Of a stretch of DNA of 64,000 bases, positions 7,251-62,290 are shown one piece after another. The notes below the pieces were generated by a model, which made no database searches, had not been told where the DNA came from, and worked only from the letters and a program-made list of their open reading frames with translations. The position numbers were made by a program, and so were the translations under genes. Where the stretch lies: assembly GCA_037445955.1 (NCBI GenBank), contig JBBIJM010000004.1, positions 5,542 through 69,541 on the forward strand. The letters are read 5' to 3'. This stretch comes from Syntrophobacterales bacterium. Lineage in GTDB: Bacteria; Desulfobacterota; Syntrophia; Syntrophales; CAMTWB01. Position 1 is the first letter of the stretch. Each line of letters starts with the position of its first letter.

Positions 7251-8897
<1,647 letters not shown>

Positions 8898-8968: not shown

Positions 8969-10183
8969 CTAGGGCCTTGATCCGAGGGCATCCCGGAGAA
9001 CCTCGACGGGATGTCTCACCTCAAGACCGGTTAACGAACGGATCTGCATCCGGCAGCCTTCGCATTCCGAAACAATAATATCCGGTTTGATCCTCTCTGC
9101 GGCCCTGGTCAGATCCCGGCCGATGGCCTGGGAGATGTCGTATTTCTCCTTCTTGAAGCCGAACGCCCCGGCCAGGCCGCAGCAGTCCGCCTCAAGCAGA
9201 TCGAGCTTAAGCCCGGGAATCAACGAGAGAAGTTCGAAGGCGGGCAGCCCGATATTCAGAGCCTTAAGATGACAGGGGACGAAATAGGCCGCCTTCTTAT
9301 CAAGCGGGGAAAGGCCCCGGGAGAGTGCCGCCCGGCAGTCCTCGTTTAAGCTCAGGTATTCGAAAATGTCGAAGATATGACCTGCCGCCTCCCGGGCCCC
9401 GGGCAGGGCGAGGATCCGGTCGTATTCGTGGCGGATCATGAGCCCGCAGCTTGGCGAGGCAAAGACAATATCCCGGCCCCGGGAGATAAGCTCCCCGAAA
9501 GACCGGAGATTGTAATTCCCCAGCCGCGCCGCCCCGGCCAGATCGCCGTGGCCGAGAAGCGGGATGCCGCAGCAGTCCTGCGGGGGCAGGATCACCTTTC
9601 TGCCGCAGGCCTCAAGGACCTCTACCGTCGCCCTTCCGACATCCACCTCGTGGACGTTGATGTAGCAGCCGTAGAAATAGCCGACGGTTATTTCTCCGGA
9701 AGAATTCCCGGGTCGGGAGCGGAACCACCGCCGAAACGACTGGGACTCATAAGGGGGCAGGTTCATTCTTCCGTCTATCCGCAAGAAACGATCGAGAAAC
9801 CATTTAACCGGGCGGCTCGTAAGCAGGGGATTCACCAGGGGGGCGAGAAGCGAGCCCAGGCCGTTTAGCCGATGGCTATGGGTCAGAAGCCAGTCCCGAA
9901 ACGGCCTGCCCTGCTCGTCGAGATATTTGGCCCGGGCCAGCAGGTTGAGCTCGGAGACCGGCACCCCGGAGGAGCAGACGGTTTCGCAGAGACGGCAGCC
10001 GAGGCACAGCTCGATCCAGTTGTCAACGGACGATTCTCCCGGATTCCGGAACCGCTCCGCCCCCGGCCCAGCCTGTTTCGGACCGGGGAACCGTCCCGTC
10101 ACCCGGGAGACCGGGCAGATGGACATACAGGTTGCGCAGCGGACACAAACATCGCAGGCCGGTTTTATCTCTTTGATGCTCAT
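8969..10183 (-). CDS. glpC: anaerobic glycerol-3-phosphate dehydrogenase subunit C (Fe-S)
   Basis: Two ferredoxin-type clusters (CVRCATCMSICP, CLGCRLCETVCS) followed by Cys-rich CCG-type repeats. It is the last gene of a glpA-B-C order, with a 4-nt overlap with glpB. Confidence 0.8.
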   Translation of the reverse strand: MSIKEIKPACDVCVRCATCMSICPVSRVTGRFPGPKQAGPGAERFRNPGESSVDNWIELCLGCRLCETVCSSGVPVSELNLLARAKYLDEQGRPFRDWLLTHSHRLNGLGSLLAPLVNPLLTSRPVKWFLDRFLRIDGRMNLPPYESQSFRRWFRSRPGNSSGEITVGYFYGCYINVHEVDVGRATVEVLEACGRKVILPPQDCCGIPLLGHGDLAGAARLGNYNLRSFGELISRGRDIVFASPSCGLMIRHEYDRILALPGAREAAGHIFDIFEYLSLNEDCRAALSRGLSPLDKKAAYFVPCHLKALNIGLPAFELLSLIPGLKLDLLEADCCGLAGAFGFKKEKYDISQAIGRDLTRAAERIKPDIIVSECEGCRMQIRSLTGLEVRHPVEVLRDALGSRP

Positions 10184-11400
10184 AATTCGCAGGCCCGTCT
10201 GGCGGCGGCATAGCCGGAGGCGATTTCGATGCCCTCCCGGGAGGTCTCCTCGATGGAGCTGTGGCAGGCCAAGATGGTCCCCGCCGCCCGGAGGTTCTCG
10301 AATACCGGTTTCCCTTCCCCGTCCACCGGCTGAAATTTCTCGTTTACCATCACCCCGGCAAAGTGGAGAGGATGAACGGAAGTCGAAAAGAAGCGTTTGT
10401 TAAACCAACCCCCCCGGGAGGAAGGCTTCTTCAGGGGGAGATCGAAGACAGGTTCCCTGATCCCCTCTTCATCCGCCAGGAGCCCGCCCCCCAGGAAACG
10501 GCCCGTAGCCAGGATGCAGGCCTCACAGGTAAAGGTCCTGCTGAGCGGGGCATGATATACGGTAACCCCCTTTATCCTTCTTCCTTCCCTGAGAACGGAC
10601 ACCACCGCCTGACCCTGGAGAAGCCTTACCCCCCGGGCCAGGAGGTGCCCTTTGAACCTGTTGAAAACCCTCATCCCCGGAATCGAGGGGGGAAGGATGG
10701 GGATTTCGAAGACCTTGAGCTTCGTTTCCGATTCGAGTTCCCTTAGAACCTGGGCGGGGGATCTCACCCCTAGGAGGGCGGGAAGCCCTACCGCCTCCTC
10801 CCCTGCCCAGCGCTTTTTGATTCCGTAGGCAAGCTCCCCTGTAAAACCGGGCTCCTCCATAAGCCGGGCAATGGCCGTGGCGGTGATCCCGCCCTGGTCC
10901 GCCCGGGGCAGGGGGATGGTGATTCCCCGGGCCTTTAAATGGTGGGCGACATACTCGGCAAAAAAATCCTTGAATCCCTCAAAACCTACGATCAAGGTCT
11001 TCCCCCAGTCGGCATCTATACCTCCCAACATGGTCGCCGGGACAAGGTAGGCGGGGTGCCTGGTCCCGGCACCGGTGGGGATGAGGCTGTTTCTTCCCCC
11101 GGGAGCGGAAAAATCGTAAGGGGGAGGGAAAAGGGAAACGAAGGATCTTAAGGCCTCTTCGATCCCCTGCCAGCCGGCCAGCGCGTAGGGGTGGCGGGGG
11201 TTGTCCCCGATCCAGGCCAGGACGTCTTCCTTGAGGCTGTCCCGGGATGCCCTGCCCAAAATATCGACGGTGTTGGAGAGGATCCCCAGGGAACCGATCC
11301 CTTTCCCTACAATCAACACCCGCCGGCCCGCCTCGGAGGCGGTTTTGGCCGCCATGAGGCCGGAGAGGCCGAGGCCGATCACAATAACGTCAAAGCGCAT
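10180..11400 (-). CDS. glpB: anaerobic glycerol-3-phosphate dehydrogenase subunit B
   Basis: The N-terminus MRFDVIVIGLGLSGL resembles E. coli GlpB (MRFDTVIMGGGLAGL). The gene lies between glpA and glpC. Confidence 0.8.
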   Translation of the reverse strand: MRFDVIVIGLGLSGLMAAKTASEAGRRVLIVGKGIGSLGILSNTVDILGRASRDSLKEDVLAWIGDNPRHPYALAGWQGIEEALRSFVSLFPPPYDFSAPGGRNSLIPTGAGTRHPAYLVPATMLGGIDADWGKTLIVGFEGFKDFFAEYVAHHLKARGITIPLPRADQGGITATAIARLMEEPGFTGELAYGIKKRWAGEEAVGLPALLGVRSPAQVLRELESETKLKVFEIPILPPSIPGMRVFNRFKGHLLARGVRLLQGQAVVSVLREGRRIKGVTVYHAPLSRTFTCEACILATGRFLGGGLLADEEGIREPVFDLPLKKPSSRGGWFNKRFFSTSVHPLHFAGVMVNEKFQPVDGEGKPVFENLRAAGTILACHSSIEETSREGIEIASGYAAARRACEL

Positions 11401-11407
11401 AAGATCC

Positions 11408-12949
11408 CTACACCCTGCCTTCCCCGGACAGTTGAAAGAGCCCCTTGTAAATCGATTCGATCAGTTCCCCCTCCCTTAAGGCCGCCCCCCAGAGCACCGG
11501 CCAGGTCCCCTTCCAGCGCTCCTCCAGAAACCCTTTCAATATCTCGTTCGAATCATCCGGGGCCAGGTTCAGACGATGCAGGACCCCGAGCAGCCGGTAG
11601 ACGCAGAACCCCCCCTGACAGGTCCCCTTGGCCAGCCTAGTCCGGTGGAGGATATCCTGGATGTCCGGAAGTCTCTCTCCCTTAAGTACCCCCTCGATCT
11701 CCTCCCTGGTCACCAGCTCGCATTCACAGAGGATCTCCCCGGCGGCGCCGGCGGCCGCGGCCAGGCCCTTCAACCTCTCTTTCAGGCCGTGCCTGCCTTG
11801 CGCCCCGGGCAGGGGGATCAAATGGGTCGTGGCGGACCCCGCGAGGCCTAACTTCTCCGAGATATGATCGACCACCTTCTCCGCCATGAGCCGGTAGGTG
11901 ATCAGTTTTCCGCCGACGATGGAGACGAGGTTTTCCAGACGATCCCTCTGGCCATGATCGATAAGGGCAAAACCCCGGCTTAAGGACCGGTCTCCGTGAT
12001 CGGCGCCGGTCTGGAGAAGCGGCCTGATCCCCGCATAGGCCCGGGTTATCCTCGTCTCCTTAATCACCGGCAGGAGCCGGGCCAACTCCCGGATCAGAAA
12101 CGAAACCTCCCGGGTGGTGGCCTCGGAATGGTCCGGGTCCTCCGAGCGGATCGAGGTGGTTCCCAGGATAGACACGGTGTCGTTCGGGACGACAATGTCC
12201 CCGTCCCCGGGCGGTCGGAGCCGGTTGATGATCCGGTGGCTGATCCGGCGGTTGGTGATGAGCATCGATCCCTTGGACATGGCCATGGGGATGGAAAGAC
12301 CCGCCGGGCCAAGCAGCCGGTTTGCCCAGGCCCCGGTGGCATTGACCACAAACGAGGCGGAAATCGTATAATCCTCTTTGTCTATCAGGCCCCTGGCCCT
12401 GGCCCCCTTGACCCAGCCGTCTTTCGTCAGGAGTTCGCAGGCCTCGGTATGGGAGAGGCATTTGGCCCCCCGGGCGCAGGCGTCGCGGATATTTTCCATC
12501 ACCAGGGCAAAGGGATCGACGGCCCCGTCGGGAACCGCCACCGCCCCCAGGAGAGAGGGGTTGAGCTCCGGCTCGATCTCCCGGGCCTCGGCCGCGGACA
12601 GGTTCCGGGCCGGGATCCCGGCGGCCAGACATCCCTCCAGGAATCTCTTGTGAAATTCGAGACCGTCTTCCGGCAGGGAAACGAAGAGGCCACCGGTTTC
12701 TTCGAGGCAGTGGGGGGCGATCCGGCGGAGGATGGCGTTTTCCCGGATACATTCCCGGGCGGATTCGGGATCGTTAACCACATAGCGGCCGCCGCTGTGG
12801 AGCAGGCCCTGGTTTCTCCCGGAGGCCCCGGAGGCATAATCCCCCTTCTCGACAAGCACCACCGGGATCCCCCTCAAGGCCAGGTCCCGGGCAATGCCGG
12901 CCCCCGTCGCCCCGCCGCCTATCACAAGCACCTCGGTCTGCAGTTTCAT
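11408..12949 (-). CDS. glpA: anaerobic glycerol-3-phosphate dehydrogenase subunit A (FAD)
   Basis: The N-terminal dinucleotide fold is VLVIGGGATGAG. The C-terminal BFD-like 2Fe-2S segment (CECELVT ... CQGGFC) is typical of anaerobic GlpA. Confidence 0.85.
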   Translation of the reverse strand: MKLQTEVLVIGGGATGAGIARDLALRGIPVVLVEKGDYASGASGRNQGLLHSGGRYVVNDPESARECIRENAILRRIAPHCLEETGGLFVSLPEDGLEFHKRFLEGCLAAGIPARNLSAAEAREIEPELNPSLLGAVAVPDGAVDPFALVMENIRDACARGAKCLSHTEACELLTKDGWVKGARARGLIDKEDYTISASFVVNATGAWANRLLGPAGLSIPMAMSKGSMLITNRRISHRIINRLRPPGDGDIVVPNDTVSILGTTSIRSEDPDHSEATTREVSFLIRELARLLPVIKETRITRAYAGIRPLLQTGADHGDRSLSRGFALIDHGQRDRLENLVSIVGGKLITYRLMAEKVVDHISEKLGLAGSATTHLIPLPGAQGRHGLKERLKGLAAAAGAAGEILCECELVTREEIEGVLKGERLPDIQDILHRTRLAKGTCQGGFCVYRLLGVLHRLNLAPDDSNEILKGFLEERWKGTWPVLWGAALREGELIESIYKGLFQLSGEGRV

Positions 12950-14246: not shown

Positions 14247-14416
14247 GATGCCCCTCCTTTAACTGCCCATTGATTGCCGGGAGTTCCCCGGATCAATCCC
14301 CGCTTCCCTCCCGCCTTACAGACCGGCTATATAGCACACCGGCTTACGGGAATACAATATCTCTTGACCGGCAGTATCCCCCGCCGTATAGTTCCCTGAA
14401 GCAAAGGAAGACGCCA

Positions 14417-16351
14417 ATGATAAAGGCCGGATACGACCCGAAATTGAAGGTCGGGGTTATCGTCTCAAGCGAGGATCTGATCGGCAAGATAAACCGCCTG
14501 GCAAAATCACGGTGGGACCAGGTGCACACGAGGCTTATCTGCGGTCTCGATGAGGCCGTCCCGGTGGGCCGGGAGATGGAGGCCTCCGGCTGCGACGTCG
14601 TGATCAGCCGGCGGGGAACGGCGGAGATCCTGCGGGAAAAACTTACGATCCCCGTTTTGGCCCTCATGGCCAATCCCCTGGATATCCTCATCAGCATAAG
14701 AAAGGCGGTCATTTTCGGCAAACGGATCCTCATCACCAGTTTCAGAAAGCAAATGACCGGCATGGATATCCTGGAGGAGATATACCAGGTTAGGATCTTC
14801 CAGGGCATATATCATGACAGCCCCAGCTTGAATCAGGTCATCGGCAAGGCCCGGGAAAAGGGGGTGGAAGTGATCATCGGCGGCGGTGTTTCCATGAAAT
14901 TCGCCGACACTTACGGGCTTAAAGGGGTCGAGCTCTACATTTCCGAAGAGGCCGTGGCCTTTGCCGTCGAAGACGCCTTGGCCTTGGCGAGACTGAGGCG
15001 CCAGGAGCAGGAGAAGTCGCGGCGATACCAATGCATCATTGATTCCTCATCCGACGCGATCCTCTCGGTCAATCGGGAAGGCGTCCTCACCACAATGAAC
15101 AGGGCCGCTCGGGATCTCTTGCGGATCCGTGATTGTCAGGAGGAATCTCACCGCCTGATCGATTACCTGCCGGAATCCGATTTCCGGCGGATTTTCCAGA
15201 CAAAACAACCCCTCTTGAACAAATTGGAAAAGGTATCAAACCTTCTCTATCTGGCAAACCATTTCCCGATCAACGTCAATGAAGAGGTGGCCGGGGTGGT
15301 TTCGATCATGAAAAATACCGCAAACGTCATCAAAGACGAAAACGAGGTCCGGAGAAACTTCGCCAAGGGCCTCGTGGCGAGGTTCACCATCGATGACCTG
15401 ATCCATAAAAGCACCGGGATGGCCGAAGCGGTGAGGAAGGCGAAAAGATACGCCCTGTCCGATTCCACCGTCCTGATAACCGGGGAGACGGGCACGGGCA
15501 AGGAGGTCCTGGCCCAGGGCATCCATAACCTAAGCGACCGGTCCAGAGGGCCTTTCGTCTCTCTCAACTGCGCCGCCCTGCCGGAGCAACTTTTGGAAAA
15601 CGAGTTGTTCGGTCATGAAGAGGGGGCCTTCACCGGCTCCCGGAAGGGGGGCAAGATCGGCCTTTTTGAGCTGGCCCATACCGGAACGATCTTTCTTGAC
15701 GAGATCGCCTCAACCCCTCCGGGCGTCCAGGCGACCCTCCTGCGGGTCCTTGAGGAAAAAAAGGTGATGAGGATCGGCAGCGACCGGCTCATTCCCATCG
15801 ACGTCCGGGTGCTGGCCGCCTCCAACAGAGACCTCGCCGCCGAGGTCCGGGCGGGACGATTCCGGGATGATCTCTTCTTCCGGCTGAACGTGCTTTCGAT
15901 CCGGCTTGCCCCCCTGCGGGAGAGGATGGAAGAACTGCCCGTCATCGTCGCCCATTGTGTGAATAAGATAGCCGCCAGGTACAGGATCCCGCCCTTGTCC
16001 CTCCCGGAGGACTGCCTAAGGCGGCTTATGTCCTACGTTTGGCCGGGCAACGTCCGGCAGGTCGAAAACTTCCTGGAAAGACTGATCCTCGCCGCCGACT
16101 CTTTCACCCCCGGGGTCTTCGACGAGCTTTTTGAGGAGATTTGCCAGGTCACCCTGCCTGAGCCGGCCCGGGAGACGTCGGGGAAAAAACATCAGCTCGA
16201 GAGACAGGCCCCGCCCGAGGGCACGAACCTCGAGGAGATCCTGCTTGAGGCCCGGTTCTGCAAAACCAAAGCGGCCGCTTTGCTTGGCATCAGCAGGACC
16301 ACCTTATGGCGCAAACTGAAAAAACACGGGCAGAACCGACCGGACCGATAA
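14417..16351 (+). CDS. sigma-54-dependent transcriptional activator, PrpR-N-type sensor + PAS + AAA+ + Fis HTH
   Basis: ATG at 14417 follows AAGGAAG. The AAA+ core has GETGTGKE (Walker A), ENELFGHEEGAFTGS (GAFTGA-type loop) and FLDEI (Walker B). The C-terminal HTH is LLGISRTTLWRKLKKHG. The N-terminal ~200 aa resemble the propionate-catabolism activator (PrpR_N) domain. Confidence 0.85.
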   Translation: MIKAGYDPKLKVGVIVSSEDLIGKINRLAKSRWDQVHTRLICGLDEAVPVGREMEASGCDVVISRRGTAEILREKLTIPVLALMANPLDILISIRKAVIFGKRILITSFRKQMTGMDILEEIYQVRIFQGIYHDSPSLNQVIGKAREKGVEVIIGGGVSMKFADTYGLKGVELYISEEAVAFAVEDALALARLRRQEQEKSRRYQCIIDSSSDAILSVNREGVLTTMNRAARDLLRIRDCQEESHRLIDYLPESDFRRIFQTKQPLLNKLEKVSNLLYLANHFPINVNEEVAGVVSIMKNTANVIKDENEVRRNFAKGLVARFTIDDLIHKSTGMAEAVRKAKRYALSDSTVLITGETGTGKEVLAQGIHNLSDRSRGPFVSLNCAALPEQLLENELFGHEEGAFTGSRKGGKIGLFELAHTGTIFLDEIASTPPGVQATLLRVLEEKKVMRIGSDRLIPIDVRVLAASNRDLAAEVRAGRFRDDLFFRLNVLSIRLAPLRERMEELPVIVAHCVNKIAARYRIPPLSLPEDCLRRLMSYVWPGNVRQVENFLERLILAADSFTPGVFDELFEEICQVTLPEPARETSGKKHQLERQAPPEGTNLEEILLEARFCKTKAAALLGISRTTLWRKLKKHGQNRPDR

Positions 16352-16363
16352 TGGTGTCAGATA

Positions 16364-16489
16364 ATGGTGTCAGGTCTACACTCTTGACAAGAGTTAAAAA
16401 AAGGGCGGAGGGCGGTGTTTCTTTTTCCTGACTCGACCGCTGATAAATATCAAGAAAATATCGAGTGAATAGTGTAGACCTGACACCAT
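16364..16489. repeat. perfect 19-bp inverted repeat separated by 88 bp
   Basis: ATGGTGTCAGGTCTACACT (16364-16382) is the exact reverse complement of 16471-16489. The left arm is preceded by a tandem 13-bp repeat, ATAATGGTGTCAG x2 (16348-16373), which overlaps the regulator stop codon. Confidence 0.9.
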
Positions 16490-16495
16490 GCTAGG

Positions 16496-16551
16496 TGAAA
16501 CTTATTGTTTCATCTATGAAACTTAATGTTACTCTGAAACTGACTGTTTCA
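16496..16551. promoter_or_regulatory. three tandem 17-bp dyads TGAAAC-N5-GTTTCA (candidate enhancer/UAS for the sigma-54 activator)
   Basis: Site 1 at 16496-16512 is perfect, site 2 at 16517-16533 is TGAAAC-N5-GTTACT, and site 3 at 16535-16551 is perfect. They lie 57-112 bp upstream of the -24/-12 element. Confidence 0.6.
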
Positions 16552-16607
16552 TCGTCGTCTAAAGGTTAATTAGCCGATTTCTCTGGACATTCCTTCCGAC
16601 CGCCTGC

Positions 16608-16623
16608 TGGCACAAAGATCGCA
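16608..16623 (+). promoter_or_regulatory. sigma-54 (-24/-12) promoter
   Basis: TGGCACAAAGATCGCA matches TGGCAC-N5-TTGCW with correctly spaced GG and GC. It sits 54 bp upstream of the first operon ATG and next to a sigma-54 activator gene. Confidence 0.75.
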
Positions 16624-16676
16624 TGGATGACTCAGTTGTCGTCTTCGGCAATTAAACCTTCGCATCAGGTATCGTC

Positions 16677-17810
16677 ATGGCCGGGTACCCGAAAATATTG
16701 CACACCGAAGAGGCGATGCGGGATGGTTTGCAGATCGAAGATAAAGATATTCCCGCCGCCGACAAGATCCTTCTCTTGGACGCCCTGTCCGAAACCGGCC
16801 TCAAGGAAATCGCCGTGGGCTCCTTTGTCTCTCCCCGGTGGACGCCGCAGATGGCCTCGATCGAGGAGGTGGTGAGGGGATTCACCCCCCGGCCCGGGGT
16901 CCGATACACCTATCTGGCTCTAAACGATAAGGGCCGGGAACGGGCCCGGGCCTTCATCCCCCCTTTGTCGCCCCCGGTTGCCGACTATTCGACCAGGGTG
17001 GATATGTGCGATGTCTTCGCCCAGAGAAACAACAACCGGACCCAGCTCAAGCAGATCGAGAGCTGGTCCGGGGTGGTCACTCGGGCGAAGGCCGCAGGCC
17101 TTACCGAAGGCGGCATGGCGCTCAGCAACCCCTGGGGCTCCAACTGGACCGGGGATGTCACCCAGGATGAGCGCCTGGGGATGCTCGAGAGGATGCATCG
17201 GCTCTGGACCGAGGCGGGATTTACCGTAACCAGGATCGGTTTTTTCGACGCCATGAGCTGGAATATGCCCGGCCAGGTGGCCGCACAACTGGCGGTGATC
17301 AAAGAGCGCTGGCCTTCCATCACCGATTTTCAGCTCCACCTTCACAACGGCCGGGGAACGGCCCTCACCTCGGTCTGGGCCGCCCTCGGGGTTCTGGACA
17401 GCGGAGACACCCTGCGGCTCCAGAGCGCAATCGGCGGCATGGGCGGCTGCCCCTATTGCGGAAACGGCCGGGCGGCGATGATGATCCCCACGGAGGATCT
17501 GATGCATCTTCTTGAGGAAACGGGTATTTACACCGGCGTCGATCTTTACCGGCTGGTAGAGGCGGTCTGGCTTGCCGAAAAAATAGTCGGCCATCCCCTC
17601 TCCGGCCATGTCTCCAAGGCCGGGCCGAGGCCGAGGGGAAGGCGCCTCTACCCCCTTGACCTGCCCTGTATCGAGACCCTGGATCAGGCAAAACACTTTA
17701 TCCTAGGCCCCGGGGCCTATGAAGGAGCCCCTTCCCCCTGGCCGGAGCCGATCAGAAGCCACCAGCGGCCGGATTCACAGTTGAAAAAGGAGACAATATG
17801 CAGCGATTAA
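16677..17810 (+). CDS. HMG-CoA-lyase-like (HMGL/DRE-TIM family) lyase with C-terminal extension
   Basis: Motifs MRDGLQIE, HLHNGRGTAL and GGMGGCPYCG correspond to the RDGLQ, HxH and GGCPY motifs of the HMGL family. At 377 aa it is about 70 aa longer than typical members. Confidence 0.7.
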   Translation: MAGYPKILHTEEAMRDGLQIEDKDIPAADKILLLDALSETGLKEIAVGSFVSPRWTPQMASIEEVVRGFTPRPGVRYTYLALNDKGRERARAFIPPLSPPVADYSTRVDMCDVFAQRNNNRTQLKQIESWSGVVTRAKAAGLTEGGMALSNPWGSNWTGDVTQDERLGMLERMHRLWTEAGFTVTRIGFFDAMSWNMPGQVAAQLAVIKERWPSITDFQLHLHNGRGTALTSVWAALGVLDSGDTLRLQSAIGGMGGCPYCGNGRAAMMIPTEDLMHLLEETGIYTGVDLYRLVEAVWLAEKIVGHPLSGHVSKAGPRPRGRRLYPLDLPCIETLDQAKHFILGPGAYEGAPSPWPEPIRSHQRPDSQLKKETICSD

Positions 17811-19591
17811 ACGGCGGACAGATCATCGTCGATTATCTGATCCAGGAGAAGGTTCCCTACCTGTTCGGGCTGTGCGGCCACGGCAACATCAGCTTCCTCG
17901 ATGCCCTCTATGAGAGATCCCGGGAAATCAAGACCGTCTCGGTCCATCATGAATCGGTCTCCGGGTTTATGGCCGACGTGTTCTACCGGGTGTCCGGGAG
18001 GCCGACTGCGACCTTTACCTCCTGCGGGCCGGGCTCGGCAAACCTGCCGATCTGCCTGGCAAACTCCTTCTTCGATTCGGTGCCCTTTCTCGCCGTCACC
18101 GCCAATGTTCCGACGAGCCAGTTCAATCGGGGGGCCTTTCAGGAAACCTACCGCCATTATCAGGCCGACTTCCCCTCGACGGTTAAGGCCTACTGCAAGA
18201 AAGTCTTCCAGCCGACCCGGGCGGACATGGTTCCCCTGGCCATCCGGCAGGCTTGGAAAACCATGGTGACCGGACGCCCCGGCCCGGTAGTCCTCGATGT
18301 TCCCTTCGACATCTTCAAGGAGGAAACGGACCTGGAAATGCCCCAGGCCGCCCTGTGGAACGGCAATATCAGCTGCCGCGCCGGCGCCGACCCGGAAGGG
18401 GTCGTCAAGGCGGTAGATATGCTGCTTCAGGCGGAAAAACCCGTTATCCTGGTAGGCCAGGGGGTAAAGTACGCCCAGGCAACCGGAGAGCTCCTCGCCC
18501 TGGCGGAGCGGCTGAAGATCCCCGTCGCCTCTTCCGCAAGCGGCATGGGGGCTCTCGACGCAAGGCATCCGCTCGCCCTGGGCCTGGTGGCCAGAAACGG
18601 AACCTATCAGGCCAACCACGCCGCCCGTCAGGCGGACGTGCTGCTGGCTTTGGGGGTAAGATTTGACGACCGGACCTCAAGCAGTTGGATTCCCGGCTAC
18701 TCTTTTTCCATACCTCCCACCCGGCTTATCCACGTGGACATAGACCCCGAGGAGATCGCAAGAAACTACCCTGTTGCCCTGGGGCTGATGGCCGACGTCA
18801 AGACCTTTCTCAGACAGTTACTGGCGGAGCTCGACCGGCGGAAACTCGCGGCGGAGATTCCGCCGGGCCGGGCTGACTGGCTTGCGGCGATAGACGGCTA
18901 CCGGAGAGAGTGGGAGGCCTTTATCGCCCCGGGGTTCCGGACGGACACAACCCCGATCCACCCCCAGCGGGCGGCCTGGGAGATCGACCGGGTCCTCCCG
19001 GAAGAGGCGATCCTGGTTAGCGACATCGGCGTCCACCACAACTGGCTGATCCAGTTCTGCCGGCCGAGACGCCAGGACTCCCTAATAGGCTCCATGGGGT
19101 TCGGCCCGATGGGCTTCGGGGTAGCCGGGGTGCTTGGGGCGAAACTCGCCGCCCCGGACCGCCCCTGCGTCTCGGTATGCGGAGACGGGGCCTTCTTCAT
19201 GCACGCAAGCGTCCTGGGCACGGCCTTCGAGTACGACATCCCGGTGGTGTGGGTGGTGTGGAACAACTACGCCTACGCCTCTATCCGGGGTCTCCAGCGG
19301 GGCTATTTAGAGGGCCGGGAACTTGCCACCGACTTCCGCCATCCGGCGACCGGCGAGCCCTACAATCCGGATTTCGCCGCGATGGCCCGCTGTGCCGGTA
19401 TCGACGGGGTAAGGGTGGATACGGCCAAAGACTTAGGCGAGGCGATCGAGCAGGCCGTCAAAGCGGGCAGGCCCTGTCTGATCGACGCCGACATCGCAGG
19501 CGAGATGAATCCGGCGGGCGCGGGGGTCTGGGAGTTGCCCGGCCTCGGCCATGGCCGGCCGGCGATTGGCGTCCGTTACGACGGCAGGTAA
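17798..19591 (+). CDS. thiamine-diphosphate-dependent enzyme (acetolactate synthase / IolD-like family)
   Basis: 597 aa with the three-domain ThDP layout. The N-terminal PYR domain carries HESVSGFMADVFYR, and the C-terminal ThDP motif is GDGAFFM...NN. A good RBS (AAAGGAG) precedes the ATG at 17798. Confidence 0.75.
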   Translation: MQRLNGGQIIVDYLIQEKVPYLFGLCGHGNISFLDALYERSREIKTVSVHHESVSGFMADVFYRVSGRPTATFTSCGPGSANLPICLANSFFDSVPFLAVTANVPTSQFNRGAFQETYRHYQADFPSTVKAYCKKVFQPTRADMVPLAIRQAWKTMVTGRPGPVVLDVPFDIFKEETDLEMPQAALWNGNISCRAGADPEGVVKAVDMLLQAEKPVILVGQGVKYAQATGELLALAERLKIPVASSASGMGALDARHPLALGLVARNGTYQANHAARQADVLLALGVRFDDRTSSSWIPGYSFSIPPTRLIHVDIDPEEIARNYPVALGLMADVKTFLRQLLAELDRRKLAAEIPPGRADWLAAIDGYRREWEAFIAPGFRTDTTPIHPQRAAWEIDRVLPEEAILVSDIGVHHNWLIQFCRPRRQDSLIGSMGFGPMGFGVAGVLGAKLAAPDRPCVSVCGDGAFFMHASVLGTAFEYDIPVVWVVWNNYAYASIRGLQRGYLEGRELATDFRHPATGEPYNPDFAAMARCAGIDGVRVDTAKDLGEAIEQAVKAGRPCLIDADIAGEMNPAGAGVWELPGLGHGRPAIGVRYDGR

Positions 19592-19616
19592 TTTCGAAGG
19601 GAAACAGGAGGATCAA

Positions 19617-21032
19617 ATGTCAAGGACCCTAACGGAGGCAGAGAGAAGCCTGGCCCGGGAGCTGCTTGCGCGGGCCAGAGAGGCCATGGCGGCCATCGAG
19701 CATTACGACCAGAAACAGGTGGACCGGCTCTGCCAGGCCATGGCCTGGCAGCTTTACAACGAACAAAATGCCGTCAGGCTGGTGAACATGGCGGTCGATG
19801 AAAGCGACCTGGGGGATCGGGTTCCGGCCAAAAGGTTCAAGGTCCTGGGGGTGCTCCGGGATGCCCTGAGGCTAAAGAGCATCGGGATCATCGAGGAGAT
19901 CCCCGAAAAGGGAATCGTAAAATACGCCAAACCGGCGGGGGTCATCTGCGCCTTGAGCCCTACGACCAATCCCCTGGTGACCCCGATGAGCGTGGGAATC
20001 TACGGGATCAAATGCAAAGACGCGGTCATTTTCAGCCCCCATCCCGCAAGCAGGAAGACCTCGACGGAAATCGTCCGCCTGATGCGGCTTGCCCTCGAGA
20101 AGGCCGGGGCGCCGGCGGACCTGCTCCAGTCGGTGGAGAAGCCGAGCATCCCCCTGGCCCAGGAGTTGATGACCCTCTGCGACCTCACCGTCGCCACCGG
20201 CGGCTCGGCGATGGTGAAATCCGCTTACAGCTCCGGAAAGCCGGCCTACGGCGTCGGGCCGGGGAACTCGACGATGGTGATCGACGAAACCGCCGACATC
20301 GAGGAGGCCGCCCGCAACACCCGGCTCAGCAAAACCAACGACAACGGCGCCGGCTGCTCCGCCGACGGGAACCTTGTCGTTCACGCCTCGATCTACGACC
20401 GGTTTCTTATCCAGTTGCAGAAGGAAGGCGGCTACCTCTGCACCGAAGGGGAAAAGGAGCTGGTCCGCCGGGTCTGGTGGGACGAGGAAGGCCACCGGAT
20501 CGTCAAGACCGTCGCCCGGCCGGCCTGGAAGGTGGCGGAGCTGGCGGGCTTCAAGCTCCCCGAAGGCAAGACCTTCCTCATCGTCAAGGAGGACAAGATC
20601 GGCCGGGAGCACCTCTTCTCCAGCGAAAAACTGGGCACGATGCTCGCGATTTTCAAGTACCAAGGCGAGTTCGAGGCCGCCTTGGATATGGTGCGGCGGC
20701 TCTACGAGGTGGGGGGCAAGGGTCATTCCTGCGGGATATATTCGTTCAACGACGATCATATCCACCGGCTCGCCCTGATGGCGCCGGTCAGCCGGATCAT
20801 GGTGAGACAGCCCCAATCGAAGGCCAATGCGGGCTCCTTCACTAACGGCATGCCGATGACGGCCAGTCTGGGCTGCGGCTACTGGGGAGGAAATATCACC
20901 AATGAAAACATCCACCTGAAGCATTATATGAACGTTACCTGGGTCAGCCGGCCGATCCCGGAGGACCGGCCGACGGAAGAGGAGCTGTTCGGCGAATTTT
21001 ACGGAAGCGAGATTTTCGAAGCGGGAGAATGA
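19617..21032 (+). CDS. CoA-acylating-type aldehyde dehydrogenase (EutE/PduP/SucD-like)
   Basis: ATG at 19617 follows CAGGAGG. It is ~470 aa with the ALDH fold and a candidate catalytic Cys in NDNGAGCSAD, resembling acylating ALDHs. Confidence 0.65.
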   Translation: MSRTLTEAERSLARELLARAREAMAAIEHYDQKQVDRLCQAMAWQLYNEQNAVRLVNMAVDESDLGDRVPAKRFKVLGVLRDALRLKSIGIIEEIPEKGIVKYAKPAGVICALSPTTNPLVTPMSVGIYGIKCKDAVIFSPHPASRKTSTEIVRLMRLALEKAGAPADLLQSVEKPSIPLAQELMTLCDLTVATGGSAMVKSAYSSGKPAYGVGPGNSTMVIDETADIEEAARNTRLSKTNDNGAGCSADGNLVVHASIYDRFLIQLQKEGGYLCTEGEKELVRRVWWDEEGHRIVKTVARPAWKVAELAGFKLPEGKTFLIVKEDKIGREHLFSSEKLGTMLAIFKYQGEFEAALDMVRRLYEVGGKGHSCGIYSFNDDHIHRLALMAPVSRIMVRQPQSKANAGSFTNGMPMTASLGCGYWGGNITNENIHLKHYMNVTWVSRPIPEDRPTEEELFGEFYGSEIFEAGE

Positions 21033-21093
21033 GGTCGTTTTATCTCCCTTTTTAGGTTCTAAAAGCGATTTACCCCACCAGGAGGGCTTGGCC

Positions 21094-23058
21094 ATGCTTA
21101 AATCTCGGGCAGATCGGGCGGTATTCATCGAGGAAGGGGCCGGCAAGAGGGTCCTCAGCGGGTTCTGGGATCTCCTGGTCAAGACGATCGCCCTGGCCAC
21201 CGCGATCTTCTACCTCTATACCGCCCTGGTCGGCCAGCTCGGGCCGGAATACCACCGGGGGATATTTGTTCTGGCCATCGTGGTGATGATCTTTCTGCTC
21301 TATCCGGCCACCTCCCGTTCCCCGAAAGACCGCCCCAGCCTTTTTGACATCCTTATGGTATTGCTAACCATCCTCTCGGTCGGCTACTGGATCTGGGAGT
21401 ACACCGACCTGGTCTATCGGGTGGGGGCCTACCTCCCCCGGGACTTCTGGTTCGGGGTGATCGGGCTTATCGTCTGCCTGGAGGCGGGGCGCCGGGTGAC
21501 GGGCTGGCTGATTCCCATCCTGGGGGGTCTCGCCCTGCTCTACGGCCTCTACGGCAATTATATCCCCGGGGTTTTCGGCCATCGCGGCTTTACCATCAAA
21601 CGTCTCGTCGAGTATATATACCTTACCTCGGAGGGCCTCTTCGGGGTGATGGCCAGCGTTTTACCTTCCTATGTCCTGCTGTTCCTCCTTTTGGGGGCGT
21701 TCCTCAAGGTCTCCGGGGTGGGGCAGTTCTTTATCGATGTCCCCATGTCCTTAGCCGGCCGTTCGACGGGAGGACCGGCGAAGGTGGCGGTGGTGGCCTC
21801 CGGTCTGTTCGGCTCGATCAACGGGAGCGTGCTGGCCAATACGGTAAGCACTGGATCGATCACGATCCCCCTGATGAAAAAGGTGGGCTACCGGCCCCAC
21901 GTGGCCGCCGCAGTGGAAACGGCCGCCTCGACCGGCGGGATGATCATGCCGCCGATCATGGGGGCCGGGGCCTTTCTCATGGTGGAGCTCACCGGCGTTC
22001 CCTACACCCAAATCGTCAAGGTTTCGTTCATCCCGGGGATCCTCTTCTTCCTGTCGATCTTTTTCATTGTCCATTTCGAGGCGAAACGCAGCAGGATCCC
22101 CGGCATCCCGAAGGCGGAAATCCCCGTATTTAAAGAGGTGATCCGCCGGGGCTGGTATCTCATCGCCCCCTTTGTGATCCTCGTGGTCCTGCTCTTTTCC
22201 GGTTTCTCCCCCAACTACTCCGCTTTCTGGACCATCGTCTCGGTGATTGTGGTGAGCTGGTTTCGCCCCGAGACCCGGATGGGCCTGCGGCAGGTGGCAA
22301 ACTCCCTCATCGACGGGATGATGTCCGCCCTCACCGTAGGCAGCCTGATGGGGGCCATCGGCATCTTTATCGGCATCGTGGTGATCACCGCGGCGGGCCT
22401 GAAATTCTCCAACGCTCTGATCGGCCTGTCCGGCGGCAACCTGTTTCTGGCGCTTGCACTGGTGGGACTTGCGGCTCTGGTACTGGGCATGGGAATGCCC
22501 ATCACCCCGGCCTACCTGCTGCTCGCCGTGCTCGCCGCCCCGGCCCTAAAAACGATGGGCGCCGATCTGCTGGCGGCCCACCTGGCCATCTTCTGGCTCA
22601 GCGCTACTTCCAATATAACCCCGCCGGTCTGTCTCGGGGCCTATTGCGCGGCAGGCATCGCCAACGCCAGCCCCTGGAAGACGGCGTTTACCGCCTTCAG
22701 GTTCGGGCTGATCCTCCTGCTCATGCCGTTTCTCTTCATCTTCGAAGACCACTTCCTCCTAACCGGCCTCTGGTACCAGAATCTCTGGGCGGTCGTCTTC
22801 ACCACCCTGGGGGTCATCGGCTACTCCGCCTGGACGATGCGTTACGCCTTCACCGAGACGACGATTCCCGAATTTTGCCTGCTTTTCGCCGTCTGGATCG
22901 CCCTGCTCTGGCCTATGTGGCAGGTGGAAGCTATCGGCCTGGTTTTGGGGGCGCTTTTCATAATTTTGCATTGGCTCAGATACCGGAATCTCCGAAGGCC
23001 ACCCGAGTTCGAAAGCGGGCCTCGGGAAAAGCCCCTGGGACCTGGAAAGGGTGCCTAG
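21094..23058 (+). CDS. TRAP transporter fused permease (TAXI-type 4TM/12TM fusion)
   Basis: A ~650-aa polytopic membrane protein with many hydrophobic helices. It is followed by a TAXI receptor gene. ATG at 21094 lies 7 nt after CAGGAGGG. Confidence 0.75.
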   Translation: MLKSRADRAVFIEEGAGKRVLSGFWDLLVKTIALATAIFYLYTALVGQLGPEYHRGIFVLAIVVMIFLLYPATSRSPKDRPSLFDILMVLLTILSVGYWIWEYTDLVYRVGAYLPRDFWFGVIGLIVCLEAGRRVTGWLIPILGGLALLYGLYGNYIPGVFGHRGFTIKRLVEYIYLTSEGLFGVMASVLPSYVLLFLLLGAFLKVSGVGQFFIDVPMSLAGRSTGGPAKVAVVASGLFGSINGSVLANTVSTGSITIPLMKKVGYRPHVAAAVETAASTGGMIMPPIMGAGAFLMVELTGVPYTQIVKVSFIPGILFFLSIFFIVHFEAKRSRIPGIPKAEIPVFKEVIRRGWYLIAPFVILVVLLFSGFSPNYSAFWTIVSVIVVSWFRPETRMGLRQVANSLIDGMMSALTVGSLMGAIGIFIGIVVITAAGLKFSNALIGLSGGNLFLALALVGLAALVLGMGMPITPAYLLLAVLAAPALKTMGADLLAAHLAIFWLSATSNITPPVCLGAYCAAGIANASPWKTAFTAFRFGLILLLMPFLFIFEDHFLLTGLWYQNLWAVVFTTLGVIGYSAWTMRYAFTETTIPEFCLLFAVWIALLWPMWQVEAIGLVLGALFIILHWLRYRNLRRPPEFESGPREKPLGPGKGA

Positions 23059-23117
23059 AAGATCGCCGGATCTGGAAATGACAACCTAAACCTTATAAGG
23101 AAAGGGAGGTTCTGACG

Positions 23118-24140
23118 ATGAAAGCAAAAGGGATAAGCAAAGACGCAAAAATGAACGCACTTGCCCGGGGAATAGGACTTTTTACCGCAATCCTCTTTAT
23201 CGGCGTCGCCTCTTACGGCCACGCCCAGACAGATCCCGCGAGAAAGGCCCTTTCTTTCTCCGGAGGCTCGCCCGGGGGCAATTACAATCTGGTGACCACG
23301 GCCCTGTCGCCCCTGCTTGCGGCAGGCCCCTCAAAAATCCGGGTCTTCCCCGAGGGGAGCACGGGGTCGCCGGAAAACATCCGCCGGATCCACTCGGGGG
23401 AGGCGGATCTGGGGCTGGCCTTCGCCTCGGACCTTACCGAGGCCTGGATGGGCGAGGGTCGGTTTAAGACCCCCCTCAAGAATCTCCGGGCCCTGGCCTT
23501 TGTCGATGCCAACATCGCCCATCTGGTCGTCCTGGCAAAAAGCGGAATCACCCGGATCGAGGATATCTACGACAAGAAGGTCGCCCTGGGGCCGCAGGGC
23601 TCCGGATCGTCGATGAACATTGAGCGGCTCCTCCGCCACCTGGGTGCCTGGGAGCAGGTGCGGCGAAACGCCGTGTACACCGGGGCGATGGACGCCTCCC
23701 AGGGCTTGAAGGACGGGCATATCGCCGCTTACAACTGGCACGTGAACATCGGGAACGCCACCTACCACGATACCGCCTCTTCCCACGACATCCGGATCAT
23801 CGATCTCGATGCGCCCGCCCGGGCCTCGGGATTCTACAAAAAATATCCCTTCTACACCCCCTTCACGATCCCCGGCGGGATCTACCGGAGCGTTGATCAG
23901 CCCGTCAGAACCTGGGCGACCCCGACCTTCTGGATCGTCAGGGATACGTTTCCCGAGGATTTGGCTTACGAACTTGTGAAGGTCGCCTTTTCCGACGACT
24001 CGATCCGCAAGATGCACGAGGCGGTGGGCCTGACGGCCAGACTGAACTACGGCCGGGATAAGGCCCTGCAGGGCATTCCGATTCCTCTTCACCCGGGCGC
24101 CGTCCGGTACTGGAAGGAGATGGGATATCCGGTGCCGTAA
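23118..24140 (+). CDS. TAXI-family TRAP solute-binding protein
   Basis: It has a signal peptide (LFTAILFIGVASYGHA) and the GGSPGGNY motif typical of the TAXI/immunogenic-protein family. Length is 340 aa. Confidence 0.75.
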   Translation: MKAKGISKDAKMNALARGIGLFTAILFIGVASYGHAQTDPARKALSFSGGSPGGNYNLVTTALSPLLAAGPSKIRVFPEGSTGSPENIRRIHSGEADLGLAFASDLTEAWMGEGRFKTPLKNLRALAFVDANIAHLVVLAKSGITRIEDIYDKKVALGPQGSGSSMNIERLLRHLGAWEQVRRNAVYTGAMDASQGLKDGHIAAYNWHVNIGNATYHDTASSHDIRIIDLDAPARASGFYKKYPFYTPFTIPGGIYRSVDQPVRTWATPTFWIVRDTFPEDLAYELVKVAFSDDSIRKMHEAVGLTARLNYGRDKALQGIPIPLHPGAVRYWKEMGYPVP

Positions 24141-24217
24141 GGTCTGCCCTTCGGGACACCGGGTTCAGGAGCCCCCCCGGGGAGGGACAGGGGGTTGCCA
24201 GTCGAAAGGAACAGTCG

Positions 24218-25366
24218 ATGAGGCTGCTTGAATATCAGGGGAAGGAACTCTTCCGGCGCTACGGCATCGCCATCCCGAGAGGCAGGCTTATCGAGGAGAA
24301 AAGGGAGATCGGCCGGATCTTCAGGGACTTGGACCAAGGCAGAGGGGTCGTCCTCAAAAGTCAGGTTCTCACCGGAAAAAGGGGACAAAATGGAGGGATC
24401 CTGTTTGCCGAAACCCCAGGCCGGTGCGCATTTCTTTACGACGAACTGATCAACCTGACAATTTCCGGCCAGCCCGTAAGGAAGATCCTGATGGAGGAGC
24501 GGATCGAGGGCGACCGGGAATTCTATCTCGGCATCACCGTGGATGCTGAAGCACGCGGGCCTCTGGTTATGATCTCCCCCTGCGGGGGCGGCAGGCTGGA
24601 GGATCAAGCCCGATTGAGGCCGGATTCGCTAGTCCGAATCCCCATCGACATAAATTACGGCCTGCTTGACTATCAGGCCCGGGAGGCCCTGTTTCGCCTG
24701 GCCCTGCCGCAAGAACTTATCCCCTCCCTTACCGAACGGATGAGGCAACTCTATCGTCTCTTTAGGGAAACAGACGCCGTGACCGCCGAGATCAACCCGC
24801 TTATCTACGCCTCCGGAAGGGGATTCGTCGCTTTAGATGCCCGGGTGGAAATCGACGACTCGGCCCTGTACCGGCAGACGGATATCCTGGAGATGAAATC
24901 CTGCCACGAACCCCAGATTGAAAACGTCCTGCGAGACGATTACCGGCTGGAATACGTCGAGCTCGACGGGAACATCGGGGTGATCAGCGGCGGGGCCGGT
25001 TTGACCATGGCCGCGATGGACTGCCTTGCCCTGGCCGGGGGGAGGCCGGCCTGTTTCCTCGATTGCAGCGCCAATGTAAGCGCCACGGGCTACGAAATGG
25101 CCTTGAGAACCCTCAATACGAGAAAGGCCGTCGATTGCATTCTGGTGAATTTTTTCGGGGGCATAACCAGAATGGACCGGGTCGGCCAATTTATTCTCGA
25201 GGCCCTGGAAAGGATCGGAGGTCTCGACAAGCCGCTTATCATCAGGCTCGAGGGCACCGACGCGCCAAAGGGACGGGCGATCATCGGCGAGGCCGGCCTT
25301 GCGCAATGCGATACCTTCGAGGAGGCGATTGAAACAGTCCTGGCCCTGGCAGGGAAAGACCGATGA
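24218..25366 (+). CDS. SucC-like ATP-grasp beta subunit of an ADP-forming acyl-CoA synthetase
   Basis: MRLLEYQGKELFRRYGI resembles SucC MNLHEYQAKQLFARYGL, and there are INPL and GNIGVISGGAGL segments. It is clearly more divergent from E. coli SucC than its partner is from SucD. Confidence 0.75.
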   Translation: MRLLEYQGKELFRRYGIAIPRGRLIEEKREIGRIFRDLDQGRGVVLKSQVLTGKRGQNGGILFAETPGRCAFLYDELINLTISGQPVRKILMEERIEGDREFYLGITVDAEARGPLVMISPCGGGRLEDQARLRPDSLVRIPIDINYGLLDYQAREALFRLALPQELIPSLTERMRQLYRLFRETDAVTAEINPLIYASGRGFVALDARVEIDDSALYRQTDILEMKSCHEPQIENVLRDDYRLEYVELDGNIGVISGGAGLTMAAMDCLALAGGRPACFLDCSANVSATGYEMALRTLNTRKAVDCILVNFFGGITRMDRVGQFILEALERIGGLDKPLIIRLEGTDAPKGRAIIGEAGLAQCDTFEEAIETVLALAGKDR

Positions 25367-26244
25367 GCATCCTGATCGACAGCTTAAGCCGGGTGCTCGT
25401 CCAGGGAATTACCGGCCGGACCGGAAGTTTTTTTTCCCGGGATATGCTGGGCTACGGGACAAGGATCATAGCCGGCGTGACCCCGGGCAAGGGGGGCGCA
25501 AGGATAGAGAACGTACCTGTCTTCAATTCGGTGAGCGAGGCCCTGGCGGAGGCGGAGGCCGACGTGTCGGCGCTGTTCGTCCCCGGGGCGGCCGCCAGAG
25601 ACTCCATATTCGAGGCCATCGCCTGCGGGATCAAGCTGATCGTCTATCCGGGCGAGAATATGCCTATCCACGACATGATGGATGTAACGCGTAAACTGAA
25701 GGAGAGCTCTTGCCGGATGATCGGCCCCAACACCCCGGGGATCATCTCTCCCGGCGAGGCAAAGATCGGCTTTATGCCCTCTTGCTGTTATCGCAAGGGG
25801 AATGTCGGGGTCGTTTCCCGCAGCGGTTCCCTCTCCTACGAGATTACCTCCGGCCTCACCCGGGCCGGAATCGGCCAGTCGACGGCTGTGGGTATAGGGG
25901 GAGATCCGGTAAAGGGAATGGGCTTCGTCGAGGTGTTGGCGCTTTTCGAAGAGGATCGGGGGACTCAGGCGGTCGTCCTGATAGGGGAGATCGGGGGAGG
26001 CGAGGAGGAGGAGGCGGCGGCGTTCATCGCCCGGGGAATGAAAAAGCCGGTCATTGCCTTTATAGCGGGGCGGTATTCGCCGGCAAACAAGAAGATGGGC
26101 CATGCGGGAGCGATCATAAGCGACGGCCGAGGCACCTACGAAGCCAAGATTGAGGCCCTGAAAGGGGCGGGGGTAAGGATCGCCCAGCGGCCCTTCGAAA
26201 TCCCCGCTCTAGTGAAGGAGGCGCTGGCCCTGCCCTCAAGGTAA
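25363..26244 (+). CDS. SucD-like CoA-binding alpha subunit of an ADP-forming acyl-CoA synthetase
   Basis: MSILID...[18 protein letters not shown] and the phosphohistidine context MGHAGAIIS closely resemble SucD. It shares an ATGA overlap with the beta gene. Confidence 0.85.
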
Positions 26245-26304
26245 GCCAAGGGGAAACGCAAGGGGAAATTATCGGGAAGAAAGAAGATGACCAAAGGAGA
26301 GGGA

Positions 26305-27108: not shown

Positions 27109-27149
27109 CAATCTGAGGGCTTTGAAGAAGTATCCGAAGGAGGCAGACG

Positions 27150-59866: not shown

Positions 59867-62290
<2,424 letters not shown>

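Follow-up and report, generated by a model that had tools for sequence, protein, structure and literature searches.

Three TGAAAC-N5-GTTTCA dyads as a probable enhancer of the adjacent PrpR-family activator at a sigma-54-type promoter

PrpR, the sigma-54-dependent activator associated with the 2-methylcitrate cycle in enterobacteria, offers the closest described counterpart to the DNA element analysed here, an array of three TGAAAC-N5-GTTTCA dyads upstream of a sigma-54-type promoter in a 64,000-nucleotide stretch of the Syntrophobacterales contig JBBIJM010000004.1 (hereafter the window). The footprinted Salmonella PrpR enhancer is CGTTTCATGAAACG, as given in Table 1 of PMC4987338, which cites Palacios & Escalante-Semerena 2004, and the Salmonella prpR-prpB spacer contains exactly CGTTTCATGAAACG plus GTTTCA-N12-TGAAAC, with four copies of the half-site in all. 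The corresponding spacer of E. coli K-12 carries five copies, arranged as GTTTCA-N12-TGAAAC-N4-TGAAAC-N6-TGAAAC-N6-TGAAAC, the last of them 81 bp before the TGGCAC of TGGCACaccccTTGCT. Half-sites of this type are also present in the prpR-prpBC spacers of Ralstonia solanacearum OE1-1 (megaplasmid) and Mycetohabitans rhizoxinica (pBRH01), where TGAAAT-N5-GTTTCA-N4-TGAAAT and CGAAAC-N5-ATTTCA-N4-TGAAAC are found at -91/-80/-70 and -92/-81/-71, respectively, relative to the -24 element; these sites were read from the annotated sequence, and no published footprint was found for them. A second point of reference is NtrC, several dyads of which are placed some 100-140 bp ahead of a -24/-12 promoter. 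Its enhancer TGCACC-N5-GGTGCA represents the 6-N5-6 dyads bound by dimers of Fis-type helix-turn-helix (HTH) domains (PMC4987338, Table 1).

On the basis of the results described below, we propose with a probability of roughly 85% that the three dyads of the window serve the PrpR-family sigma-54 activator encoded at 14417-16351 as its enhancer (upstream activating sequence), and that they would act on the promoter at 16608-16623. Dyad 1 (16496-16512, TGAAACttattGTTTCA) and dyad 3 (16535-16551, TGAAACtgactGTTTCA) are perfect TGAAAC-N5-GTTTCA palindromes, while dyad 2 (16517-16533, TGAAACttaatGTTACT) has two mismatches in its right arm (4/6). The original prediction, made from the letters of the window, had listed two perfect dyads and an imperfect one starting at 16496, 16517 and 16535; these coordinates were reproduced on re-reading, as were the spacings of 21 and 18 bp between the centres (16504, 16525 and 16543) and the distance of 66 bp from the centre of dyad 3 to the GG of the promoter (16609-16610). 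The left arms of dyads 2 and 3 lie 91 and 73 bp before TGGCAC. The sigma-54-type -24/-12 element assigned to 16608-16623 also stands, since TGGCACAAAGATCGCA differs from TGGCAC-N5-TTGCW at a single position. Located on the forward strand, this element (TGGCACaaagaTCGCA) has its GG (16609-10) and GC (16621-22) separated by 10 bases in a TGGCAC-N5-TTGCW context, and in a mismatch search it was the best match of that type in the window. Between enhancer and promoter lies a spacer of 56 bp (16552-16607), the presumed site of bending or looping, with the A/T-rich stretch TAAAGGTTAATTAG at 16560-16573. The best matches to the IHF consensus in this spacer carry two mismatches and none is convincing; therefore we do not claim an IHF site. 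An Rfam scan of 16000-17000 returned sub-threshold chance matches only.

The clustering of these hexamers is far beyond chance. The base composition of the window predicts 0.0018 perfect dyads per 64 kb, and two are observed within 56 bp. TGAAAC/GTTTCA hexamers occur 27 times in the window (0.42 per kb), five of them within one 60-bp span, for which the window-wide Poisson expectation is about 5e-6. No further dyad site with up to two mismatches was found near a -24/-12 element within the 64-kb window, and a mismatch search showed no second cluster of such dyads there.

The activator gene (14417-16351, forward strand) encodes a protein of about 644 aa with PrpR_N, PAS, Sigma54_activat (AAA+), AAA_lid and HTH_8 domains. 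Its probable start codon, ATG 14417, is preceded by the ribosome-binding site AGGAAG, and a sigma-70-like promoter is found at 14364-14392. Matches to PF00158 (E = 2.7e-65) and PF02954 (HTH_8, E = 6.6e-10) identify an AAA+ activator of sigma-54 with a C-terminal Fis-type HTH, and the match to PF06506 (PrpR_N, E = 1.3e-34) is above the gathering score and places the protein in the broad PrpR family. Every motif required for sigma-54 activation is present, including Walker A (GETGTGK), Walker B (FLDEI) and the GAFTGS loop, a variant in place of GAFTGA that the E. coli PrpR shares. Scores with the NCBIfam models for PrpR equivalogs, TIGR02329 (392.6, cut-off 499.2) and NF011953 (372, cut-off 703), fall below the thresholds, and the protein is therefore a PrpR-family paralogue rather than PrpR itself. 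Neighbouring prpBCDE or other 2-methylcitrate-cycle genes are missing; the adjacent genes are all non-prp. As judged from its domains and neighbours, this paralogue of the PrpR family possesses an additional PAS domain and would govern a non-prp operon.

Compared with the Salmonella and E. coli enhancers, the window has the same hexameric half-site in several copies, five perfect and one degenerate as opposed to four in Salmonella and five in E. coli K-12, and likewise has them upstream of a TGGCA(C/T)-N5-TTGC-type promoter and beside an activator with PrpR_N and GAFTGS. The recognition helix is nearly identical, GISRTTFWRRLK in enterobacterial PrpR and GISRTTLWRKLK in the window activator. 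What differs is the arrangement: Salmonella combines GTTTCA-N12-TGAAAC with an abutting GTTTCA|TGAAAC and E. coli has direct repeats every 10-12 bp, whereas the window has TGAAAC-N5-GTTTCA dyads. The abutting palindrome CGTTTCATGAAACG, the published Salmonella consensus, is not present, as there is no contiguous GTTTCATGAAAC in the window; its nearest equivalents are GTTTCA-N4-TGAAAC (16507-16522) and GTTACT-N1-TGAAAC (16528-16540). The proteins differ as well. Enterobacterial PrpR is about 528-541 aa long, lacks PAS, is encoded divergently from its target and serves the 2-methylcitrate cycle, in contrast to the window activator of about 644 aa with PAS, a co-directional gene and a non-prp operon, and the two are 43% identical over AAA+/HTH but only 24% over PrpR_N.

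The betaproteobacterial loci are closer in layout. In both, a half-site is followed by N5, an inverted half-site, N4 and a further half-site, and precisely this order is seen in dyad 1 together with the left arm of dyad 2 (TGAAAC-N5-GTTTCA-N4-TGAAAC, 16496-16522), albeit at -112/-101/-91. Nearest to the betaproteobacterial positions, at -91/-80/-73, come the half-sites of dyad 2 and, after N1 rather than N4, the left arm of dyad 3. The Ralstonia and Mycetohabitans activators are also of the long form (649-672 aa) and are 32-33% identical to the window activator; their loci differ in having one and a half dyads rather than three, degenerate half-sites (TGAAAT, CGAAAC, ATTTCA) and divergent prpBC genes. 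Multiple GTTTCA/TGAAAC half-sites upstream of a -24/-12 element are thus what the window has in common with PrpR-family enhancers. The statement that this motif is not recognisable from characterised regulators was consequently wrong, because both the half-site, known from the Salmonella enhancer and the E. coli, Ralstonia and Mycetohabitans spacers, and the layout are traits of the PrpR family.

Other activators resemble the locus in part. With NtrC it shares the 17-bp dyad, 6-bp arms, N5 spacing and a Fis-type HTH dimer; half-site (TGAAAC/GTTTCA instead of TGCACC/GGTGCA), recognition helix and sensory domain (a phosphorylated receiver as against PrpR_N/PAS) are different. NorR binds three GT-N7-AC dimer sites at norV, which have been proposed as the template of a hexamer; it has three dimer sites in common with the window, but its motif is unrelated and its sensory domain is GAF. 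NorR is counted among the ligand-sensing activators (PMC4987338). Long PrpR-like activators of the LvaR type (levulinate operon of Pseudomonas; for LvaR see PMC10164729) have the same order of PrpR_N, PAS, AAA+ and HTH, a length of 650 aa and the helix GISRTTLWRRL, and differ from the window activator in their target operons. On the P. aeruginosa plasmid pPA272 (L139, 1288-1537), a gene annotated as prpR is divergent from lvaA/lvaB-like genes and hence encodes an LvaR-type regulator. Of the annotated proteins compared, its product matches the window activator best over the full length (37% over 609 aa), yet no clear TGAAAC-N5-GTTTCA site was found in the lvaR-lvaA spacer of the pPA272 copy examined. 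The strings PrpR, GAAAC and GTTTC do not occur in a Desulfovibrio vulgaris regulome paper, nor do TGAAAC and GTTTCA in a Clostridiales regulome paper, in which the PrdR motif is TGT-N10-12-ACA. The helix GIS(R/K)TT(L/F)WR(R/K)L is found alike in the activator of the window and its orthologues, in PrpR of E. coli, Salmonella and the two Betaproteobacteria, and in the LvaR-like plasmid protein.

A protein search with the activator yielded an orthologue group of 60-69% identity, followed by a drop to 55% and below. DNA was fetched for eight of these proteins and two paralogues. The composite TGAAAC-N5-GTT-N3/4-TGAAAC, with at most one mismatch, was found at nine promoters in eight further loci with activators 53-69% identical to that of the window (L045, L046, L128, L129, L131, L132, L136 and L134), once in each and twice in L128, and in every case it sits in the spacer adjoining the activator gene. 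By comparison, it had no match in 909 kb of 123 control loci searched on both strands. These controls reuse 43 loci of the first gene of the downstream operon and 80 unrelated sigma-54 activators; the latter come from a metagenome scan dominated by the generic peptide ENELFGHE and have 35-51% identity, almost all over AAA+/HTH only. In L045, L046, L128, L129/L130, L131 and L132, the form TGAAAC-N5-GTTnnn-N0/1-TGAAAC follows directly after the activator gene, and a promoter TGGCAT-N5-T(G/C/T)GCT is located downstream of the motif in L045, L046, L128 (twice), L129, L131, L132 and L136.

The half-sites also recur at similar positions, measured from the T of TGGCA. In the window they are at -112, -101, -91, -73 and -62; the two sites of the orthologues are at -91 and -73 in L045, at -90 and -72 in L046, L129 and L131, at -88 and -71 for both promoters of L128, and at -88 and -70 in L132. 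Dyads 2 and 3 are therefore the positional equivalents of the orthologues' two sites, with dyad 1 added. Dyad 2 matches site 1 (TGAAAC-N5-GTTnnn), dyad 3 matches site 2, of which the left half-site alone is conserved, and dyad 1 is an extra promoter-distal site whose counterpart is absent from most orthologous loci. In an alignment of 10 sequences, invariant columns are confined to the two TGAAAC hexamers, GTT, TGGC and GC, plus a single C that stands alone 7 nt ahead of the first hexamer. In alignment A1, dyad 2 shows no variation in the AAA of its hexamer or in the G of GTT, and the C and TT that come next are conserved to at least 90%. A further block, GATTTC(A/T), precedes the -24 element by 32-34 bp, in the window as GATTTCT (16576-16582, within the 56-bp spacer) and in L045 (about 6066), L046, L129 and L131 as GATTTCA at the matching position. 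It resembles a degenerate GTTTCA half-site and was not seen in L128 or L132.

The operons downstream of the motif vary from locus to locus and include a branched-chain amino acid-type ATP-binding cassette transporter, TctABC, an aconitase, an acyl-CoA dehydrogenase and, in the window, an operon for an HMG-CoA lyase (HMGL)-like protein and a thiamine pyrophosphate (TPP) enzyme. Across these different operons, what stays with the motif is the activator gene. The suggestion that the dyads are the recognition element of the adjacent PrpR-type activator is thereby supported at the level of comparative sequence, in that the half-sites recur beside orthologous activators at a nearly equal distance from the promoter and ahead of varying operons.

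L128, the closest orthologous locus, has the TGGCATgattaTCGCT promoter twice. The whole enhancer-promoter module occurs twice there (558-681 on the minus strand and 4963-5086), each copy having the same TGGCATGATTATCGCT promoter and sites at -88/-71. With the TPP and activator genes between them, the two copies face outwards, one after the activator gene and the other divergent, upstream of the TPP gene; the activator of this locus thus probably has at least two targets. In L136, whose activator is 55% identical, TGAAAC-N5-GTTTAA-N1-TGAAAC lies farther upstream of its promoter, TGGCATgctttTAGCA. L134 has a perfect TGGAAC-N5-GTTCCA dyad (5150-5166) after the gene of a 53%-identical paralogous activator, and its promoter TGGCATgatatTGGCT faces a divergent aldehyde dehydrogenase gene. 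This variant dyad suggests drift of the half-site within the clade.

The original prediction had also held that the enhancer is unusually close to the promoter, which the distances do not bear out. Start sites of sigma-54 promoters are expected about 12 nt after the GC, and with the GC at 16621-22 the predicted start is at about 16634, with a leader of about 43 nt to ATG 16677. The dyad centres would then be at about -91, -109 and -130 for dyads 3, 2 and 1, distances that are ordinary for sigma-54 enhancers such as those of glnAp2 and pspA. The promoter-proximal TGAAAC precedes TGGCA by 70-73 bp in the window (-73) and at seven further promoters, all beside 60-69% orthologues, and by 70-71 bp in Ralstonia and Mycetohabitans. 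When sigma-54 promoters of Desulfovibrio vulgaris were surveyed, those no more than 100 nt from the nearest enhancer site made up the largest fraction (PMC4641369).

Among other interpretations, the one that survives best is that the unit is not a symmetric dyad but an array of TGAAAC in direct orientation, 17-21 bp apart, together with the intervening GTT. Being more a refinement than a true rival, it appears improbable, though not negligibly so. Under it, the perfect right arms seen in dyads 1 and 3 would be peculiar to this locus, as might result from duplication of an 18-21-bp unit. This view draws on the second site of the orthologues, which has no recognisable right arm (ATCTTT, CCTTTT, CCTTTC, AAATGT or CCATTT), on the four direct TGAAAC copies 10-12 bp apart in E. 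coli, and on a repeat search in which the three copies of the window form a 19-nt direct-repeat family spaced by 21 and 18 bp. However, without selection for symmetry it is very unlikely that two perfect 12/12 palindromes would fall within 56 bp, the N5 inverted pair is kept in the Ralstonia and Mycetohabitans prpR-prpBC spacers, the 53% paralogue has its perfect TGGAAC-N5-GTTCCA dyad, and 6-N5-6 dyads are what Fis-type HTH dimers of the NtrC class use (PMC4987338, Table 1).

It is far less probable that the dyads are operators of some other factor, such as a LacI/Cra-like, CRP/FNR-like or other dimeric repressor, and lie upstream of the promoter by chance. TGAAAC/GTTTCA does resemble the half-sites of some LacI-family operators, and a weak sigma-70-like match, CTGACA-17-TATTGT (16480-16508), overlaps dyad 1. 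Operators of the LacI type, however, are contiguous palindromes of 14-16 bp and not of 6-N5-6 geometry, and no gene for a LacI/Cra-like or CRP/FNR-like regulator adjoins the locus. Moreover, the motif tracks the activator gene over unrelated operons at a fixed distance from the -24/-12 promoter, and the hexamer is already documented as the PrpR half-site. Least probable of all, and rejected because the right arms are unconserved in the orthologues, which would lose the hairpins, and because the dyads are upstream of the predicted start, is the notion that the palindromes act as RNA hairpins when transcription reads through from the activator, or else have no function and stem from the strong 126-bp inverted repeat immediately upstream (16364-16489): 16488-16560 does fold as RNA into two hairpins (-16.7 kcal/mol, z = -3.5), but any DNA palindrome would fold likewise, neither hairpin has a U-tract after it, and the inverted-repeat element is missing from all orthologous loci even though the TGAAAC sites are present there.

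Returning to the dyads as the enhancer of the adjacent activator, we envisage that activator dimers would bind the TGAAAC/GTTTCA half-sites via the recognition helix GISRTTLWRKLK of the C-terminal Fis-type HTH. The six half-sites are spaced by 11, 10, 11, 7 and 11 bp and could hold three dimers, as many as make up an AAA+ hexamer. A small-molecule effector sensed by the PrpR_N/PAS region would release the AAA+ domain, and a bend in the 56-bp spacer would let the hexamer touch the closed complex of sigma-54 RNA polymerase at TGGCAC-N5-TCGCA (16608-16623). The promoter would then be opened through ATP hydrolysis and the GAFTGS loop, for transcription of the catabolic and transport operon from 16677 on.

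Several observations weigh against this proposal. The orthologues conserve only about one and a half dyads (TGAAAC, GTT, TGAAAC), complete right arms are seen in this window alone, and it is likewise only from this window that the idea of three dimers templating one hexamer derives. The spacing of 18 bp between dyads 2 and 3 does not correspond to an integral number of helical turns. One 63% orthologue, L047, lacks the TGAAAC composite throughout the 9.9 kb of DNA fetched and is an unexplained exception, and no such motif was found in the DNA fetched for the 49% paralogue L135. In addition, L045, L046, L129 and L131 are closely related to each other, so that the loci are not fully independent. 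Finally, there is no rpoN among the open reading frames (ORFs) of the window that were examined, and sigma-54 is therefore assumed to be present in the host. As a separate observation on L047, TGGAAAatcacTTGCA follows directly after the activator stop codon (5921-6307).

The presumed target operon (16677-27659, forward strand) was delimited by closely spaced ORFs on the same strand and holds no prp genes. It starts with the HMGL-like lyase (16677-17810), followed by an acetolactate synthase (ALS)-like TPP enzyme (17798-19591), a SauS-like CoA-acylating aldehyde dehydrogenase (about 19617-21032), a fused tripartite ATP-independent periplasmic (TRAP) permease (21088-23058), a TAXI binding protein (23118-24140), the subunits of a SucCD-like CoA ligase (24218-26244), a PcaD-like hydrolase (26287-27108) and a 169-aa ORF (27150-27659), all on the forward strand. 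Read mechanically, the ORF of the aldehyde dehydrogenase begins at 19551, before the TPP gene has ended (19591); on the identical Logan contig the gene is called with 471 aa, and hence with a start at about 19617. The TPP enzyme is 84% identical to the product of the TPP gene adjoining the closest orthologue (L128), and the aldehyde dehydrogenase 80% identical to that encoded downstream of the motif and promoter in L136, a coherence of the putative regulon that supports a conserved role. The closest solved relatives of the TPP enzyme are carboligases and ALS-type enzymes, by which no substrate is named. Identity of the operon with the Desulfococcus biacutus acetone cluster was considered and dropped, as term searches of the published account brought up no link between that cluster and the window operon. 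The dyad was not found in the 43 genome loci fetched via the HMGL-like first gene; since these loci lack it and the two closest (L002 and L003) have neither an activator nor a TPP gene alongside, they are uninformative for the enhancer.

A more specific interpretation, possible but rather doubtful, is that the window holds an idealised and expanded PrpR-family site, with six half-sites and two of three dyads perfect as opposed to about three half-sites in its relatives, which would form the full template for one hexamer and drive an uncharacterised anaerobic catabolic pathway for an organic acid or ketone. This pathway would comprise the HMG-CoA-lyase-like enzyme, the ALS-like TPP enzyme, the CoA-acylating aldehyde dehydrogenase, TRAP-TAXI uptake and the SucCD-like ligase. 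TPP and aldehyde dehydrogenase components appear to accompany the activator clade in other Deltaproteobacteria-like genomes.

Beyond the enhancer, the surroundings of the promoter show some further features. The 126-bp element at 16364-16489, between the activator stop codon and the dyads, has 25-nt arms (16364-16388 and 16465-16489) that are 92% complementary, 19 nt perfectly so, and no second copy was found in the window or any fetched locus; it may be an insertion resembling a miniature inverted-repeat transposable element or an insulating hairpin. Ahead of it, GATAATGGTGTCA is tandemly duplicated (16347-16372) and overlaps the activator stop codon. As RNA, the region 16347-16489 folds with -52.9 kcal/mol (z = -4.2) and has no U-tract after it. 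In the orthologous loci L045 (6116-6404), L046 (3693-3988) and L131 (5147-5331), the leaders downstream of the sigma-54 promoters are long, at about 185-300 nt. The block AAGC(G/C)C(A/T)GG(G)TTCTGCG, about 65-75 nt past the -24 element, is conserved in all three despite different operons, and L045 and L046 share a second leader block, GGATCGGCCATCCTGATTATAAAGAATAATTCCAGAGG; these blocks may reflect leader RNA or secondary regulatory elements. Upstream of the window activator lie glpABC (8969-12949, minus strand) and groEL (7251-8897). As dnaA (57136-58479) and gyrB (59876-62290) are also present, the window adjoins the region of the chromosomal replication origin.

Since motif, geometry and position match known PrpR-family enhancers, the array is an ordinary further example of this class and not a new motif. 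It reveals no new regulatory principle, and only the idealised triple-dyad form and the uncharacterised operon are mildly unusual. Its value is a well-supported assignment of a cis-element to its regulator for an unstudied clade of PrpR-like activators in Deltaproteobacteria-like metagenome bacteria. The TGAAAC half-site and the GIS(R/K)TT(L/F)WR(R/K)L helix are common to every PrpR-family locus examined here, from Gamma-, Beta- and Deltaproteobacteria-like sources, and therefore the composite TGAAAC-N5-GTT-N3/4-TGAAAC combined with a -24/-12 element could predict the regulons of PrpR_N activators. For the clade represented here, these results point to a conserved yet uncharacterised regulon built around the TPP enzyme and the acylating aldehyde dehydrogenase.

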